Assembly (NCBI GenBank): GCA_964636085.1
Contig: CAZWPQ010000019.1
Span: 1-39,340 of the forward strand
From: an uncultured Nitrososphaerota archaeon
GTDB taxonomy: Archaea; Asgardarchaeota; Njordarchaeia; Njordarchaeales; Panguiarchaeaceae
Reading direction: 5' to 3'
DNA length: 39,340 bases
Below the pieces are notes generated by a model. That model did not search any database, was not told where the DNA came from, and worked only from the letters and a program-made list of their open reading frames with translations. The position numbers and the translations under genes are program-made. Numbering within the stretch: position 1 is the first letter of the stretch; each line of letters begins with the position of its first letter. Shown piece after piece: positions 32,490-39,340 of the stretch.

Positions 32490-33161
32490 ATGGTGTTTGG
32501 AATGGGGCTTAATAGTGTCTGGGCTAAGAATGTCTGGAACGCATTATATCGCTACTTTCATGATATTCTAGATAAATTTGTGGTTGATTTTGCGAAAAAT
32601 AATTTTGAGTTGCTTGTAGCCATAATTTTGAGCCAAAATACTACCGAGAGAAACGCCATAAGTGCTTTTATTAACCTTAAGGAAAAGGTTGGGTTAGATC
32701 CTAATGTTATCGCTGGTGCCCCCTTATCCGAGATTGAAAGAGCAATAAGGGTTGCTGGCCTATACAAACAAAAGGCTAGGACAATAAAAAGTCTCGCAAT
32801 GAATGTACTAAAGGGCCTGGACTTAGACAAACTATTGTGCCTAGATTTAGAGGTCGCCAGAAAAAAACTCCTTAGTATTAAGGGGATAGGGAAGAAAACA
32901 GTGGATGTATTTTTGGCGATACATGGCAAAAAAATAATGGGTCTAGATACTCACGCTATAAGGATAGCTAGGAGATGGGGAATAGCATATTCGAATTCGT
33001 ATGATGAAATCCAAAGAGCATATATCAGACTATTTGGCTTTCTAGACAACCTAGATAGGTTGCATAAGTTACTAATACTATTAGGAAAAAATATATGTAC
33101 CGCAAAGAAGCCAAGATGCGAGATATGTCCAATAGAACAATATTGTCCTAAGAAACTTTAA
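32490..33161 (+). CDS. nth: Endonuclease III (HhH-GPD glycosylase with 4Fe-4S cluster)
   Basis: LVAIILSQNT, HhH LLSIKGIGKKT, DTH, and CTAKKPRCEICPIEQYC. Confidence 0.9.
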   Translation: MVFGMGLNSVWAKNVWNALYRYFHDILDKFVVDFAKNNFELLVAIILSQNTTERNAISAFINLKEKVGLDPNVIAGAPLSEIERAIRVAGLYKQKARTIKSLAMNVLKGLDLDKLLCLDLEVARKKLLSIKGIGKKTVDVFLAIHGKKIMGLDTHAIRIARRWGIAYSNSYDEIQRAYIRLFGFLDNLDRLHKLLILLGKNICTAKKPRCEICPIEQYCPKKL

Positions 33162-33167
33162 ATATAT

Positions 33168-33938
33168 CTAGATGAGCCTATTAGAGAATGTTGCTAATGT
33201 CTTTAGGCTTGCTAGTGCGACAATTTTTTCGCCCCTAACTGCACGCTCTGACCCCCATGTATATGTCCAAGAGTCTTCCTTAAGTTCATCAGTAATTATG
33301 TGTACTATTGCCAATGAAACCTTTCTGTAATGGGCCACAGTCATGAGTGCTGTCGATTCCATATCAACTCCAATCACTTTCTGTTCTCTATATTTCCTAA
33401 TTTTGTCGATTGTCTCTCTAAAGACCGCGTCGATGCTCCATATGCCTCCCTCCACAACATTGATATCCTCTAAATCTGTTTCAAGTATCATGTCCCTGAG
33501 TTTATCGGCGAGTTTTTTGTCAGGTTTTGGTATGTAATCTGGTGGCATATAGTGATAGCTTGTGCCCTCCTCTCTTATGCCCCATGTTGGAATAAATATA
33601 TCTCCAATTCTTACATCTGGACGAATTGAGCCCGCAGCACCAATAACTATAATTTGTTTTGCTCCAGAGGCTATGAGTAACTCTAGTGCAAGAGTACTAG
33701 CTGGGGCTCCAATATTTAATGTGGCCACAAAAATTTTTCTTCCATGAAATTCGCCTAGGGTGGGATCATAGAGCGGAATTTTCATTGGAAATTGTTTATG
33801 GTTCTCCAAGTATGAGATTACTGTTTTTGTTGTCCTACTACCAAAGGTAAGAACACATTGGCTACATGGTAGCATAATCTCTTCCCGATAAGCAAAGTCT
33901 TGAGGATCAACTATGGATCTGCTATCCGAGTAAAACAT
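33168..33938 (-). CDS. Purine/uridine nucleoside phosphorylase family protein
   Basis: IGAP, GAAGS, IREEGTSYHY, DAVFRET, and GVDMES. The likely start is ATG 33938. Confidence 0.9.
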   Translation of the reverse strand: MFYSDSRSIVDPQDFAYREEIMLPCSQCVLTFGSRTTKTVISYLENHKQFPMKIPLYDPTLGEFHGRKIFVATLNIGAPASTLALELLIASGAKQIIVIGAAGSIRPDVRIGDIFIPTWGIREEGTSYHYMPPDYIPKPDKKLADKLRDMILETDLEDINVVEGGIWSIDAVFRETIDKIRKYREQKVIGVDMESTALMTVAHYRKVSLAIVHIITDELKEDSWTYTWGSERAVRGEKIVALASLKTLATFSNRLI

Positions 33939-34511
33939 AAGCCTACACCCCCATGACATGGCCTAAAAATCCCTCGCTAATTGTATTTTTACATAATCGT
34001 AAAAAATAATATTGTTACAATGTTAAAAAGGAAGAAAAATACTCTATGCTATGGAACAGCGTCCCTGATAATAAGGGAAATCAAACAAACTGCTCTATAT
34101 CGCTTCGCGATATGGATACACCCCGTAAAAAATATTGCGTGGGTTATGGCTAGTTGTGTGGGTTGTTATTTTGACTGCTTTCTTTCGCTCGATGCCGTCT
34201 CTGTTTCCTTGGTGAGCGCGACATTTATGCTCCAAAATTCACCTAGCAAATTGGGCTGAGGCCACTATCAACGCTTCTTCTATCACTTCTAATTTGGGTG
34301 TTTCTGATTGTTGTATGCAAGGCTTACGGCGATAGCCTTGATGGTGGAATTATCAAATCTAGCTTGGTCTGAATGGACGTATTTTTTAGGGGAATACCAA
34401 CAAAGATAGGCTCTATACCTATGGCCCTATTCCAGCTAAGGCCAGGTCAAGCAGCCCTGAAGAACAACCATCAAACAAACCTTATTCTTAAAACTTTTTT
34501 TTGAATGAATA

Positions 34512-34730
34512 ATGTTGGTGATATCCTTGGAGGTCTCTGTAAGCTACGACAAGAATAACGATATTCTATTCATTAGGTTCATAACCAATAAGAAACAGGC
34601 AGATATAGATGAGCCTGTAGAGGGCGTAATTGTTTATCTAGCCCAAGATGGTACTGTTCTTGGATTTGAAATATGGGACGCCAAGAAGAGAGGAATAATA
34701 GATGCATTAAAGGAGGCTATTTCCGAATAA
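34512..34730 (+). CDS. DUF2283-like putative antitoxin
   Basis: YDKNNDILFIRF...EGVIV...DGTVLGFEIWDAKK. Confidence 0.85.
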   Translation: MLVISLEVSVSYDKNNDILFIRFITNKKQADIDEPVEGVIVYLAQDGTVLGFEIWDAKKRGIIDALKEAISE

Positions 34731-34742
34731 GGGGGATACACT

Positions 34743-35048
34743 ATGGGCATTAGTGTGTCTGCTTGTCTTAGAAAAATTCATCATGACATCAACCCTAGGG
34801 ATCTACAGAACGCTGTTACAAAGCCCGATGATACATATATGGATCCTAAATGCGAAAGATATTTCTACGTAAAGAAGCTTCTGGACAAGTGGATTGTTGT
34901 GGTTGCAAGGGGAGATAAAAAAATTGAGATAATCACAGCGTTTTATATATCAGACAGGAAAAAGAAGCGGTATATCGGTAGCAAACTGATCTCCAGAAAA
35001 TGGAAAAAAGTTGGGCCCCGATTGCCTGTTTATACCGCAACTTTGTAA
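34743..35048 (+). CDS. DUF4258/RelE-BECR-like putative toxin
   Basis: AVTKPD...YVKK...WIVVV...IEIITAF pattern; GGGGG RBS; adjacent to DUF2283. Confidence 0.6.
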   Translation: MGISVSACLRKIHHDINPRDLQNAVTKPDDTYMDPKCERYFYVKKLLDKWIVVVARGDKKIEIITAFYISDRKKKRYIGSKLISRKWKKVGPRLPVYTATL

Positions 35049-35054
35049 GTGTGA

Positions 35055-35440
35055 ATCTGCAAGTCTGATGCTGTGAGCTTTATTCTATTTATGCGTTGTT
35101 GATTATTCATCTATCTTGGCCTTTTACAAGCATTAGATTCGGTAAAAGTCTAATCGGCATATGAATTATTCCATATGGTTCGCGTCGGTTTTTAGCTTAG
35201 GAGGAATATCCCGCCTCTAGATGAGGCTTGAAGTCTCTGAAGTCTTAGGTGTCATGAAACCTTCGTTGTTTGCTTCTAGGTAAAACCATCTGAGGAATCC
35301 ATATAACTGTTTTTCTGAAGTTATTCTACAGAACAAAACACCTTTTGTAGTGGATTAGACATAATCTGCACAGAGTTGTTTCTTGTCTTGGAATATCGGT
35401 GATTCTGAAGTTAGTAAAGTTTCTGAAGATACTGAAGTTT
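35055..35440 (+). repeat. Left arm of long inverted repeat; perfect core 35141-35242
   Basis: 35141-35242 is the exact reverse complement of 36441-36542. The flanks align at roughly two-thirds identity by eye. Confidence 0.95.
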
Positions 35441-35558
35441 TTGCTAGAGTTATACGATGTGTGATAAGCATTATTCTAGAAAGAACCTAAACCAATAAGC
35501 AAATTTGTGATTGCTCTATCTGAGGAATGAAGACACATTTAGTCTCCCCTTTTAAAGC

Positions 35559-35568
35559 GTGAATTCAC
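35559..35568. promoter_or_regulatory. Palindromic putative operator GTGAATTCAC just downstream of TATA-like TTTTAAA
   Basis: Perfect 10-bp palindrome between a TATA-like box (35550-35556) and the DUF433 start. Confidence 0.45.
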
Positions 35569-35581
35569 AATTTTAATTCTA

Positions 35582-35854
35582 GTGATCAAGGCCATGGATA
35601 AAATGACTACCACAGATTTGAGGAGTCTATCGGAGAACTATCTCAAAAGAATAGTACAAGACCCAGAGATACTTGGTGGAAAACCAGTAATCGCGGGCAC
35701 AAGAATCTCTGTCGAGCTCATATTAGAGAAACTAGCCGCTGGCTGGTCCATAAGCGAAATCCTCGAGAACTATCCAGAACTAACCATTGAGGACATCAGA
35801 GCTGCACTATATTTTGCAAAGAAAATTTTGGAAAAACTCTATGAGGTTGAGTAA
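35582..35854 (+). CDS. DUF433 family antitoxin
   Basis: RIVQDPEILGGKPVIAGTRISVELILE...EILENYPELTIEDIRAAL. Confidence 0.95.
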   Translation: MIKAMDKMTTTDLRSLSENYLKRIVQDPEILGGKPVIAGTRISVELILEKLAAGWSISEILENYPELTIEDIRAALYFAKKILEKLYEVE

Positions 35855-36228
35855 TAATTGCCACTAAGCTTCTTGCTGATGCAAATATTCCACAGAAAGC
35901 TGTCGATATTCTCCGCAGAAAAGGCATCGATATAGTGTCCATCCGTGAGATAAACCCTAGATTGAAGAACAGAGAGGTGGCTATCATAGCTTCTTCGCAG
36001 AATAGAATAATCGTCACAGCTGATAAAAATTTTCCTCGAGTTGTTTTTAAGGAAGGTATTAAGGTGCCTGGAATCTTGCTCTTGGTCGATATAGAGTTCC
36101 TTAAAGCCGCAGAAATTACTGAGACCATAATTATGGCTATTAGTAGTGGAGCTATTAAGTATGGTCATTTAGTGGTGTATTCACCATATGGTGTAAAGAA
36201 AAAACGCGAATTACTGGGGTACATTTAG
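35851..36228 (+). CDS. DUF5615 (VapC45-like PIN) toxin, probably attenuated; no canonical start codon
   Basis: The frame extends upstream of GTG 35935 as (V)IIATKLLADANIPQKAVDILRRKGIDIVSI...RIIVTADKNF. Confidence 0.8.
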   Translation, partial: VIIATKLLADANIPQKAVDILRRKGIDIVSIREINPRLKNREVAIIASSQNRIIVTADKNFPRVVFKEGIKVPGILLLVDIEFLKAAEITETIIMAISSGAIKYGHLVVYSPYGVKKKRELLGYI

Positions 36229-36335
36229 AACACTAACTAGCATCTCTTTTATCTTTGATGTTGATATAACTTCGAAGCTTTGATATATATTATCTCCTTT
36301 AGGTATCAAATATTCTTTGTTTAGTTTTCGCGAGG

Positions 36336-36628
36336 AAACTTCAGTAGCTTCAGAATCACCGACATTTGAGAACTAGGCATTACCATGCACAGTTTAAGTC
36401 TAATTCACGACAAAAAAAGGTGCTTAGTTTCACAGAAAAGCTTCAGAGACTTCAAGCCTCATCTAGAGGCGGGATATTCCTCCTAAGCTAAAAACCGACG
36501 CGAACCATATGGAATAATTCATATGCCGATTAGACTTTTACCAAATCTAATGCCTGTAAGGCCCAAAAATAGAAGATTAATTAATAACACTTAGATAAAA
36601 TAAAACTTATGACATTGAACTTACAAGT
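36336..36628 (-). repeat. Right arm of long inverted repeat; perfect core 36441-36542
   Basis: Reverse complement of the left arm, lacking the ~78-bp segment 35243-35320. Confidence 0.95.
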
Positions 36629-36736
36629 CTCTCATAGTCGGCATTCCTTTGTAGGAAATCTACTGTCCCGTTACTATGATTTGGTTTGATAATAGTGTTA
36701 ATTCTAATCTGGCATATCCTTGGAGCTCACACACTA

Positions 36737-37794
36737 CTACACTTTTATCATGAATATTTTATACATCATTTCTATTAGTTGTTGTTCTGTCATCATATCC
36801 ACCACTTTTAGTGTTCCAGGTATTGTTTCCTCCATGGCATATAGAAATACCTGAAGCATCTCCGGTGACGCATTGAATATTGTCTGGAAGTGTTTATATA
36901 CGAAATCAACCCTTCTAAGCTCGTCAAATAGTTTTCTGAATTTGTTGAAGACTTTCTCCTTTCCCTTATCTATCGCCAGTTTTATTAATCCTGCAACTAG
37001 GATAAATATCGATGTTGATATATCATCCACATTCTCCTCGGGCATAGCGCCCAAAATTCGCCGTATGTCTGTGGCCTCAAAGTCTTCTATCGCGAATCCA
37101 AATTCTCCTAGTTTCTCCAAATCAATCACTCCAGCGGAATATAATATACTGGCGACTGCCTTCCTCAGTTTATTCTCCATATGTATGAGTATCCTAATAA
37201 GATTAATGTTATCCCTAGCGATCTCCTCTATATCCCCCTCCGATATTCCATGTTTATATAATGCATACGAAATTATTCTTGGGGCTAGGATATTTGTCAG
37301 ATGATACCCAGCACCCCCCCCTCTACAATGTATGTCTCCAGAAGACGAACTAACTCCTCCACATGTTCCACAAATTTTTCATCACATCTAAACTTGAAGA
37401 CAAAATAGTTAGCAATGGACTCGTCAACAATTTTGTATAGTATCAACTCATCACCTAGGGGTTCTTCCACCACCCTATGCTTCTGCTCGAAATATATGTG
37501 CCCGACCTCATGCACAAAAGTCCTCAGGAATACATCCTCGAAATCCTCAACGTAGTAGAGGAGAACCATAGAGAGATTTTTGTCATATTTCCCCATTAGG
37601 GCGTGTGATGCCAAATAGACATGCGTGGGGCTTGTCGGTAGCCTAACCATAACATTGATATCCCCCCTCATAAGGGTCGATTTTAGAAAATCAGATATCT
37701 CTCTCGGGATCCCATCTAGATATTCCATACACTGCTTCTCTTGATACATATACATCTTATTTATCGGCGGATCAATCACGATGTTGAAAGGCAA
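36737..37794 (-). pseudogene. HExxH zinc-metallopeptidase-like gene split by a frameshift in a G8 tract (or phase-variable gene)
   Basis: The 5' ORF has FVHEVGH...DESIANYF. One extra G at 37314-37321 joins it in frame, through GAGYHLTNILAPRIISYALYKHG...LIH, to the 147-aa ORF, giving 352 aa. Confidence 0.8.
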
Positions 37795-37884
37795 AATTCA
37801 ACACCCACCACTATTTTTTCCTGGTATCTACCGCATTATACCTATCCCCCTCCATTTGGTAGTTGGACAGAATAACTATTGTTC

Positions 37885-38505
37885 TCACCCGGGATATACA
37901 ATATATGTGGCTATCCCTACCAATATCTCTACAAATAAAAACATTAGCCAGAAAACCATCTTTTTTACAGCACCTATGTCCTTATCTCCCCTCGGTCTTT
38001 TAGGTATTAAAACCAAGAGACCATATAATACGAATGGTGTTCCACCAAAAATCATCAAGAGCAATGGGCTAAGTATAATCCCCGACAATATTATCTCAAA
38101 GAAGAAGCCATGAAGGCCCGCCATAACAAGTATTTCATAATCCCGATAGTTATATTTCCGCATGTATTTTAACCATAGATACGCCATCGTTATAAATATA
38201 GGTATCGCTCTTACATAGTCCTCTACCAGGGACGTTGCTTCACCATGTAGCCCCCCACCTATATAGTATACTATTGTTTCCTCAATAATCACCAAAAATA
38301 ATATTGTGGGCAGATATGGCCTCGGCTCCAATAGGTATAGATAAACATAAATAATAGGAATCACGACCACATAAAACGACAATCCATAATTCCCTTCGGT
38401 AACACCCAACAAAAAGAGAATCACAAAATCTGCCATTCCCCAGATGAATAGAATCTTACCAATATTAGAACCAAATATACCAAATTCTCTCATCCCGCTC
38501 CCCAA
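37885..38505 (-). CDS. Multi-pass membrane protein of unknown function
   Basis: About 6-7 hydrophobic segments with intramembrane polar motifs IIEET and GLHGFFFE. Confidence 0.8.
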   Translation of the reverse strand: MGSGMREFGIFGSNIGKILFIWGMADFVILFLLGVTEGNYGLSFYVVVIPIIYVYLYLLEPRPYLPTILFLVIIEETIVYYIGGGLHGEATSLVEDYVRAIPIFITMAYLWLKYMRKYNYRDYEILVMAGLHGFFFEIILSGIILSPLLLMIFGGTPFVLYGLLVLIPKRPRGDKDIGAVKKMVFWLMFLFVEILVGIATYIVYPG

Positions 38506-38603
38506 AAACTTATCAAGCCACCCATAACAAATTATCCCAAGAATTTGACAGAAATATCACGCCAACAATTCAAAAGCTGCTTTCAAAATCTGGAATATTG
38601 TAG

Positions 38604-39044
38604 CTAGATCTCAATCTTGTCAAATTTGGAGGCTATATTATCTATCACATCCCCCAGATCTACAATTCTATCATGTACTATTTTTCTCAAAATCCGGAAT
38701 ATTCTCCTCACACATATTAGCCCTCTTCGAATGGTATTTTCATCAGCCAAAAACCACTTATGATCTACCTCATTTCTAAGTGTGTATAGTGTTGATGCAA
38801 CACTTAGTTCCCTCGCCTCTCTATCCCCCAGTCCCAAATCTCGCATAAAGTTTATTGTTTTCGCTATCACGGCCCCACTTCTGGATGGTATAGATTGCTT
38901 ATAATAGTTTAGTATCGCTCTAAAGACGGCCTCTATCACAAACCAGAGAGCAGATATAGCTTTATTATAGCATGCATTATCGACATCAATCACTACCTCC
39001 CGTGCAAGGGTCTCCGCTTTTCTTAGATACTCTCTATACTTCAT
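38604..39044 (-). CDS. HEPN domain protein
   Basis: YLRKAE...YNKAISALWFVIEAVFRA...LYTLRNEVDH (Rx4H). The likely start is ATG 39044, overlapping the upstream gene. Confidence 0.8.
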   Translation of the reverse strand: MKYREYLRKAETLAREVVIDVDNACYNKAISALWFVIEAVFRAILNYYKQSIPSRSGAVIAKTINFMRDLGLGDREARELSVASTLYTLRNEVDHKWFLADENTIRRGLICVRRIFRILRKIVHDRIVDLGDVIDNIASKFDKIEI

Positions 39045-39340
39045 CGACCTCATCTACATGCACAATTATTGGCGCCTTTAGGTTGTTTTCTCTCTCGAAG
39101 CACCTAACGGCCTCTACAATCCTCTCCACAACATCCCAGTTCTTCTCCCTAACCACAACACGCACAGCTGGGCCATCATCAAGACTATCAACACGAACAA
39201 TAATCTCTCCAAACAGATCCCTTAGATAGTTTGAGAGTTTAGTGAGTAGTCTAGGCTCCAAAAAGTAGTACTCATTACTAGAATATTCATCGACCTCATC
39301 TACATGCACAATTATTGGCGCCTTTAGGTTGTTTTCTCTC
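39034..39340 (-). CDS. Tandem-repeat MNT-fold-like protein, 5' end beyond the window
   Basis: The frame is open to the window edge. It carries an 82-aa repeat unit ending RENNLKAPIIVHVDEVDE and is coupled to the HEPN gene. Confidence 0.65.
   Translation of the reverse strand, partial: RENNLKAPIIVHVDEVDEYSSNEYYFLEPRLLTKLSNYLRDLFGEIIVRVDSLDDGPAVRVVVREKNWDVVERIVEAVRCFERENNLKAPIIVHVDEVDEV
39040..39340. repeat. Perfect direct repeat: 39040-39094 = 39286-39340, period 246 bp
   Basis: 55 identical nt, running to the window edge; the period equals 82 codons. Confidence 0.95.

Follow-up and report, generated by a model that had tools for sequence, protein, structure and literature searches.

Short, non-coding repeats that occur in many copies, lie between genes or abut gene ends, and resemble miniature inverted-repeat transposable elements (MITEs) are known as SM in Sulfolobus, Correia in Neisseria and ERIC in the enterobacteria. 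They provide stop codons to adjoining genes, have a sharp boundary against unrelated flanks, are confined to a narrow clade, and their copies in different species are more alike than the surrounding genes. The same characteristics mark a repeat family described here, two members of which face each other, as inverted arms, around a toxin–antitoxin (TA) pair of the DUF433 and DUF5615 families in the genome of an uncultured archaeon of the Njordarchaeota. The locus lies near one end of a stretch of 39,340 nt (CAZWPQ010000019.1; hereafter the window), which constitutes contig C19 of G000, a metagenome-assembled genome (MAG) of 2.4 Mb in 102 contigs that is 83% complete. The family differs from SM, Correia and ERIC in several respects: its units have neither terminal inverted repeats (TIRs) nor target-site duplications (TSDs), only the outer end of each unit is sharp, the tail is built from modules of ~85 nt with CTGAAGTTTCTGAAG clusters, the copy number is low (~9), and no parent insertion sequence (IS) was found.

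Other described systems share further features with the locus. In TA-cargo transposons, such as members of the Tn3 family with TA modules, a type II TA pair likewise occupies a variable, island-like region and has inverted repeats on either side; here, however, there is neither a transposase nor a resolvase, the arms are diverged dispersed repeats, and the TA block is found alone elsewhere. Invertons of the Hin/Gin and FimB/E types also have inverted repeats around a promoter-bearing segment, which would measure ~1.2 kb in this case, but here no recombinase is adjacent, typical crossover sites are far shorter than these repeats, the segment takes in the entire operon rather than the promoter alone, and only one orientation has been seen. 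Finally, in the gene conversion of inverted paralogues, as between tufA and tufB of Salmonella or the plastid inverted repeats, a sharply bounded tract of full identity ends where homology breaks, as it does here, although the partners at our locus are non-coding repeats that are only ~66–78% identical outside the tract. We found no directly relevant literature on DUF433 with DUF5615, on MITEs in Asgard archaea, or on archaeal TA pairs flanked by inverted repeats. It is the last of these processes that we favour, with a little more confidence than doubt: the locus would represent a gene-conversion patch between two dispersed-repeat copies that flank an independently mobile TA cassette. In what follows, G002, G003 and G004 are congeners of G000, and L-numbered entries are the contigs compared, from MAGs or metagenomes.

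The inverted arms and their identical core

A repeat search returned the two arms as an inverted pair at 35058–35242 and 36441–36625 (185 nt, 86% complementary, with 1198 nt between), together with a weaker inner pair at 35343–35423 and 36335–36415 (81 nt, 74%) and a 20-nt pair at 35421–35440 and 36336–36355 (95%). The architecture given in a preliminary description of the locus, inverted arms around a single DUF433/DUF5615 pair, was thus reproduced, as it was by alignment and by Pfam matches. When 35141–35242 is aligned with the reverse complement of 36441–36542, all 102 positions are identical, whereas the outer 90 nt of the arms agree at 59 (65.6%), which is also the figure that had been obtained by hand. 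In all other pairs of family members at 66–77% identity, the longest identical run is 10–19 nt; a run of 102 nt is far beyond chance. Given the diverged outer parts and the short runs in comparable pairs, the identity of the core is therefore a secondary event, and the earlier suggestion that one homogenized block in diverged arms is a sign of recombination or gene conversion is borne out. The inner end of the core coincides, in the alignment, with a CTGAAG cluster, beyond which the arms carry different modules.

The idea that the arms arose by an old duplication fared less well. For its outer part, the left arm shares 80% identity with the copy on contig C74, which exceeds its 65.6% identity to the right arm, and the mutual distance between the outer parts of the two arms is no smaller than that to any other family member. 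Because their mutual similarity does not exceed that to the rest of the family, the arms are, as judged from these alignments, separate members of it, with no duplication in situ.

Perfect identity of this kind could in principle be produced by the collapse or chimeric joining of two similar repeats during assembly: the genome is an incomplete MAG in 102 contigs, strain variants exist within it (C73 and C74; see below), and heads, the outer parts of the repeat units, are often located at contig ends. However, the locus is also represented in an assembly from the European Nucleotide Archive (ERZ27248328; MEGAHIT, k=141), in which contig L056 is 100% identical to 32678–35250 (left flank, head and left core), and contig L054 is 99.8% identical to 35402–39180 (TA genes, right arm and right flank). 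L054 has seven differences from the window, all of them within the TA genes (35677–36060) and six within 82 nt of the toxin gene (35979–36060), whereas neither the arms nor 3 kb of flanking DNA show any difference. Because all seven differences lie in the TA genes, ERZ27248328 stems from a different population carrying the same two cores, each with its own flank, base for base. Moreover, a Logan contig from SRR7051321 (L055; Logan contigs are built with k=31) matches 36513–39069 and ends 30 nt into the right core, exactly at the branch point predicted for k=31 if the two flanks share the core. Since the second assembly reproduces both cores and the Logan contig breaks at the branch point, assembly collapse, which the preliminary description had named as a possible refutation, is unlikely and is itself largely refuted; an artefact, be it collapse or chimeric joining, we hold to be extremely improbable.

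The perfect core was also the basis for regarding the locus as an invertible cassette, in which the cores would recombine, by homologous recombination or through a recombinase from another locus, and so flip the ~1.2-kb interior, with repeated flipping and mismatch correction keeping the core identical. Indeed, a perfect inverted repeat of 102 nt is a competent inversion substrate, inversions do arise in the TA block, as illustrated by contig L083, and the contigs of the second assembly break in the left arm. The genome also encodes candidate enzymes: matches to PF00589, PF00239 and PF07282 in G000 amount to one tyrosine recombinase, two serine recombinases and one TnpB, which are found only on C1, C35, C26 and C40. 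None lies on C19, in keeping with the earlier statement that the window encodes no transposase or recombinase. On the other side, a flip would carry the promoter along with the antitoxin and toxin genes, all three of which the segment contains; genes and promoter would stay coupled, and inversion would not constitute an on/off switch. Only one other assembly resolves the right junction, in L054, and there the orientation is that of the window; on the left, the k=141 graph of a flipped arrangement would branch at 35243, yet the contig extends 8 nt beyond that point, to 35250; and the breakpoints in L083 are different (~35926 and 36309), with only 7 nt of microhomology. Furthermore, no sequence is common to the arms and the surroundings of the tyrosine and serine recombinase genes, the TnpB gene or an IS-like end on contig C17, such that the search for an enzyme with matching ends, which had been proposed as a check, yielded genes on other contigs but no shared sequence. 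With one orientation in L054 and a left break displaced from the flip point, as seen in assembled contigs, we consider inversion very unlikely.

A dispersed non-coding repeat family

The family was delineated with BLAST, nhmmer and a sequence-only model (R1) in G000, its congeners and metagenome contigs, and in twelve further genomes of the order outside the genus. G000 has four strong and about five partial copies, on C19 (two), C74, C1, C23, C73, C62, C22 and C4. Further copies are present in three of four congeners (G002, G003 and G004; 2–4 each) and on metagenome contigs L013, L015 and L021, whereas the twelve genomes outside the genus gave only two borderline matches. The repeat is thus a non-coding dispersed element that, these two matches aside, is found only in this Njordarchaeota genus. 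Each unit, of ~200–500 nt, begins at a sharp outer end with a head of ~195 nt, to which up to three modules of ~85 nt are added, with CTGAAGTTTCTGAAG clusters between them; the full units, in L013 and L035 (G004:C48), have the head, all three modules and a longer cluster at the end. All copies have a common outer terminus, with consensus GTGACTTTGTAAGT, beyond which the DNA is unrelated, whereas their inner ends are at variable positions. Alignment with the full units reveals that the indels between the two arms of the window are whole modules, each bounded by CTGAAG clusters (the left body is 72.5% identical to L013 by BLAST).

The copies that can be resolved elsewhere, on C1, C23, L013 and L035, have no inverted partner, and the genes neighbouring the various copies share nothing. 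The core is therefore not found paired around other TA cargo, as had been envisaged; rather, the combination that the preliminary description associated with chance neighbours, unpaired dispersed copies and a single orientation, is largely what we observe, as the resolvable copies are unpaired and L054 has the window's orientation. There is no conserved reading frame through the head, and we rejected it as coding sequence, since stop codons abound in all forward frames and the open reading frames (ORFs) on the reverse strand differ in frame between copies.

Units at different loci in different species are 85–92% identical, compared with 66–70% for coding DNA between these genomes, and because of this difference the family must be presumed to spread between species, by some mechanism of mobility or transfer. 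Hallmarks of transposition were sought at several levels. In the complete units L013 and L035, no inverted copy of the 14-nt terminus lies within the contig, and a repeat search of L013 finds no inverted partner; near matches of the terminus (2 or 3 mismatches) adjoining the arms in the window are limited to two tandem ones at 35037–35064. Inspection by eye of the flanks of both window arms, C1 and L021 revealed neither a TSD nor a conserved base before the terminus. A fuzzy search of the genome (83% complete) with a 22-nt terminus returned known copies only, and no autonomous element, and the arms had no match in collections of viral contigs, plasmids or phages. Taken at the level of sequence, this suggests an undescribed, atypical non-coding repeat family of an Asgard genus, spreading without a recognizable transposase.

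The head might alternatively be a structured RNA, or a 3'-untranslated-region or terminator module transcribed inward, with the convergent copies regulating the TA operon, for example by antisense action or through a long duplex closing the transcript. The RNAalifold consensus folds at -21.7 kcal/mol for the forward strand versus -9.3 kcal/mol for the reverse, G-U or A-U pairing is preserved, on the forward strand only, by the many substitutions that are transitions, and at about position 140 of the head there is a conserved T5 tract. Additionally, about half of the copies lie directly 3' of a co-oriented gene, for which three of them provide the stop codon. However, the orientation of the remaining copies to their neighbours, divergent or convergent, follows no pattern (some diverge from a gene start), the consensus structure shifts as sequences are added, and its covariation term is only ~-0.4 kcal/mol. 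In a pair test, 90.6% of cells were paired versus 89.3% in shuffles, and the covariation score of 0.240 versus 0.217 was reached by 29/500 shuffles, which is within the stated false-positive range for related sequences. The arms have no Rfam match, either at the gathering threshold or at E<=5. We judge a functional RNA unlikely. ARAGORN detected only a tRNA-Pro, elsewhere in the window, and a group II intron, a TnpB guide RNA (omega RNA) and an IS200/605 end were dropped as candidates on the basis of the lack of an Rfam match, the poor reverse fold and the absence of a nearby TnpB.

Some observations concern individual copies. Contigs C73 and C74, 99.76% identical over 5 kb, differ by a strain-level insertion polymorphism inside the head: in C73 (1–200, versus C74:1–230), foreign DNA interrupts the head near position 70 and ends in a 62-nt sequence that is common with C17:1205–1266 and is probably an IS end. 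The point of divergence between the two contigs was considered as a recombination site and rejected, because it is an insertion ending in the IS-like terminus shared with C17. Small ORFs that are retropepsin-like by sequence motifs only adjoin two degenerate heads in G000 (C62:3226–3588 and C4:37071–37520), and another occupies the expected place of the head and TA block in G002 (L058, which is G002:C255, from ~2290 onward); this may be coincidence.

The toxin–antitoxin block and the origin of the arrangement

The TA block recurs at 90–93% identity on contigs L072–L076 and L082, where homology starts at exactly 35403 and, in L082, extends to 36312; upstream, the DNA is unrelated to that of the window, and there is no head directly beside the block. 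A more distant copy (83%; L077–L080) resides in a TA island without heads, DUF433 proteins in other metagenomes are 95–97% identical, and none of the seven other DUF433 loci in G000 coincides with a head copy when coordinates are compared. Searched for as an exact sequence, the 82-aa DUF433 product gave no match. Because the block is found elsewhere from 35403 without heads, it and the repeat units are, on present alignments, separate modules joined at the CTGAAG cluster.

This bears directly on the proposal that the arms bound a mobile unit, that is, that the repeat units are the long terminal inverted repeats of a non-autonomous transposon of ~1.6 kb, with TA cargo, mobilized in trans. The sharp outer ends of both heads do face outward; the consensus terminus contains TGAC, and so a 5'-TG, as in many DDE transposons, the ends of which follow a TG...CA rule; the higher identity of the units than of coding DNA across species and loci indicates that they spread; and the right flank in G002 is without the element. 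Set against these points, the window has the sole paired instance; flank inspection gave no TSD, and no empty site was found; there are no further termini or autonomous element in the genome, and no transposase ends match; elsewhere, the TA block is bounded at 35403 and not at the head ends (L072–L076 and L082), and heads are absent from the other DUF433 loci; and the arms are old, diverged paralogues rather than the matching ends of a recently moved unit. Such a transposon is, in our estimation, quite unlikely.

The same junction invites a further proposal, in which the CTGAAGTTTCTGAAG clusters would be the recombination sites of an undescribed cassette-exchange process in the Njordarchaeales: the head and modules would act as landing pads, and blocks comprising a portable promoter and a TA or defence operon would be joined, deleted and swapped at the clusters. 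Cassette exchange would explain why TA homology starts at a cluster, why module indels are cluster-bounded, why independent assemblies break there and why heads recur near the TA block; we nevertheless rate it as quite improbable.

We return to gene conversion. Two repeat copies, having diverged independently, lie tail-to-tail on either side of the DUF433/DUF5615 block, which is itself exchanged between genomes without heads. Non-reciprocal homologous recombination between the inverted copies would then have overwritten ~102 nt of one arm with the sequence of the other. The inner limit of the tract would be set by the loss of collinearity, because each arm has lost different modules by deletion between CTGAAG clusters. 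Accepting this, the inverted geometry would follow incidentally from a location in a variable TA/defence island to which such elements are drawn, and would not be a switch.

Several points weigh against this account. Neither arm stands out as the donor, the identity of the core being 77.5% with C74 and 78.4% with C1, and gene conversion at ~75% identity would require mismatch-tolerant recombination, which this organism would have to possess. The contigs of ERZ27248328 end at 35250 and restart at 35402, leaving 151 nt (35251–35401, two modules of the left arm) unassembled. Heads are strikingly often located at the ends of MAG contigs, with the inner side outward (five contigs), and both this and the unassembled stretch could hide structural heterogeneity. 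The family has no TIR, TSD or transposase that would account for its spread. Moreover, two heads within 1.6 kb, among about nine in 2.4 Mb, compare with ~0.05 such pairs expected by chance according to our arithmetic, and in L082 a head is located at a distance of 2.4 kb from this TA block, albeit in a different geometry; the association of heads with the island is therefore not random, and for this our model offers only a 'hot spot'.

Features of the locus and wider meaning

The features of the locus are collected in Table 1.

Table 1. Coordinates and assignments of features in and around the TA locus of the window
Feature	Positions	Strand	Description
Left-flank TA-like pair	34512–35048	+	DUF2283 gene, 34512–34730 (PF10049, E 1.8e-11), and 101-aa RelE/barnase-like ORF, 34743–35048
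Partial terminus duplicate	35037–35050	+	14 nt, GCAACTTTGTAAGT, immediately before the true terminus; 2 mismatches to GTGACTTTGTAAGT
Left head	35051–35242	+	Dispersed-repeat copy (family length ~195 nt) with a sharp boundary on the outer side, at 35051; nhmmer E 1.7e-63, R1 E 2.7e-47
Left-arm core	35141–35242	+	Perfect 102 nt, read as a gene-conversion tract; inner end at CTGAAG cluster, where collinearity of the arms is lost
Left body	35243–35402	+	Modules 2 and 3; module 1 absent, deletion bounded by CTGAAG clusters; aligned to L013:1805–2160 and L035:675–1030
Terminal CTGAAG cluster	35403–35440	+	TTCTGAAGTTAG...ACTGAAGTTT; tandem repeat; end of repeat unit and first bases of the TA block elsewhere
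Promoter/leader of TA operon	35441–35581	+	Putative TATA-like TTTTAAAG at 35551–35558
DUF433 antitoxin gene	35582–35854	+	PF04255, E 8.4e-27
DUF5615 (PIN-like) toxin gene	35857–36228	+	PF18480, E 1.1e-17, residues 6–107 of the 35851 frame; domain start ~35866
3' non-coding end of TA block	36229–36312	+	Homology to 36312 with L082 (contig end there) and to 36309 with L083
Right body	36313–36440	-	Tail, inverted CTGAAG cluster at 36336–36355, module 3; modules 1 and 2 absent
Right head	36441–36635	-	Outer end ~36635; perfect core 36441–36542; nhmmer E 1.1e-61, R1 E 1.2e-45; identical in L054
Right-flank gene	36737–37180	-	147 aa, no Pfam match; orthologue in G002:C255 without head or TA downstream

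The cluster at the junction of the left arm and the TA block contains CTGAAGTTT 9-mers. Starting in its last bases, the segment 35436–35578, with the TATA-like box, is 75% identical to positions 684–827 of L034 (G004:C225), upstream of an AAA_21 ATPase operon. Two near-perfectly conserved boxes in this promoter/leader segment of ~135 nt are common to the TA operon and the L034 gene pair, which comprises the AAA_21 ATPase gene and a 163-aa gene (937–2371), and the segment may be a portable regulatory module of defence and TA operons. No usable positional signal for a TATA box emerged when promoter motifs were crudely profiled across the genome, and a scan for bacterial promoters and terminators was uninformative.

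The toxin gene itself appears to be damaged. In L077, the antitoxin stop overlaps the ATG of the toxin (TAATGGCC), whereas the window, L054 and L082 have TAATAATTGCC, with ATA in place of the ATG. The first canonical start is then a GTG at 35935, which would give a protein of 97 aa without 26 N-terminal residues of the domain, including the LLADAN strand; the DUF5615 toxin of the window would, by this comparison, have lost its start codon. Contigs from other metagenomes present further lesions. In L083 (JGI Ga0180302_10079089; 125–912), the toxin body, equivalent to 35920–36309 of the window, is inverted relative to the antitoxin and the first 26 toxin codons, with the 7-nt microhomology ATACCAA at the junction, which is an independent disruption of the toxin gene. 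In L075 (697–1045), and also in L073, L074 and L076, ~350 nt that cannot be aligned to the window interrupt the toxin gene at the equivalent of 35956; the interruption is GC-rich in L075 and has no copy in G000.

In the left flank, the 101-aa ORF matches PF18810 below the cut-off (E 0.0016), and its last codons and stop lie within the 14-nt copy of the head terminus (match at 35037–35050). On the right, the orthologues in G002 of the 165-aa and 147-aa flanking genes are adjacent, with no head or TA block after them. In L082 (1–124 and 503–1243), the head is back-to-back with a weak match to DUF3800 (E 1.7e-4). Further upstream in the window, a non-coding sequence of 312 nt (34083–34394), with a GC content above that of its surroundings, is 87–93% identical to several sites in the congeners: G002 has two in tandem on C4, one on C97 and fragments, G004 has them on C8 and C163, and a fragment is present in G000 itself (C40:9455–9530). 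The same element starts at the end of metagenome contig L075, after the truncated toxin gene; by appearance, it is one more family of non-coding DNA, either mobile or under strong conservation.

Read literally, the first interpretation of this locus pointed to a new kind of switch in archaea, or to a mobile TA unit lacking a recombinase; on the evidence, it shrinks to a more ordinary gene-conversion patch between two copies of a clade-specific repeat. The homogenized block, as a trace of recombination, and the absence of a nearby recombinase survive from the earlier interpretation, whereas the duplication, the mobile unit and the invertible cassette are not supported. In practical terms, the repeat family is a cause of contig breaks in Njordarchaeota MAGs. 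The TA cassette, for its part, appears to have sustained repeated, independent damage to the toxin gene, by loss of its start codon, by insertion and by inversion. Overall, and to the extent that gene conversion is the correct explanation, the two arms provide evidence that short-tract recombination takes place between sequences that are only ~70–78% identical in these uncultured archaea.

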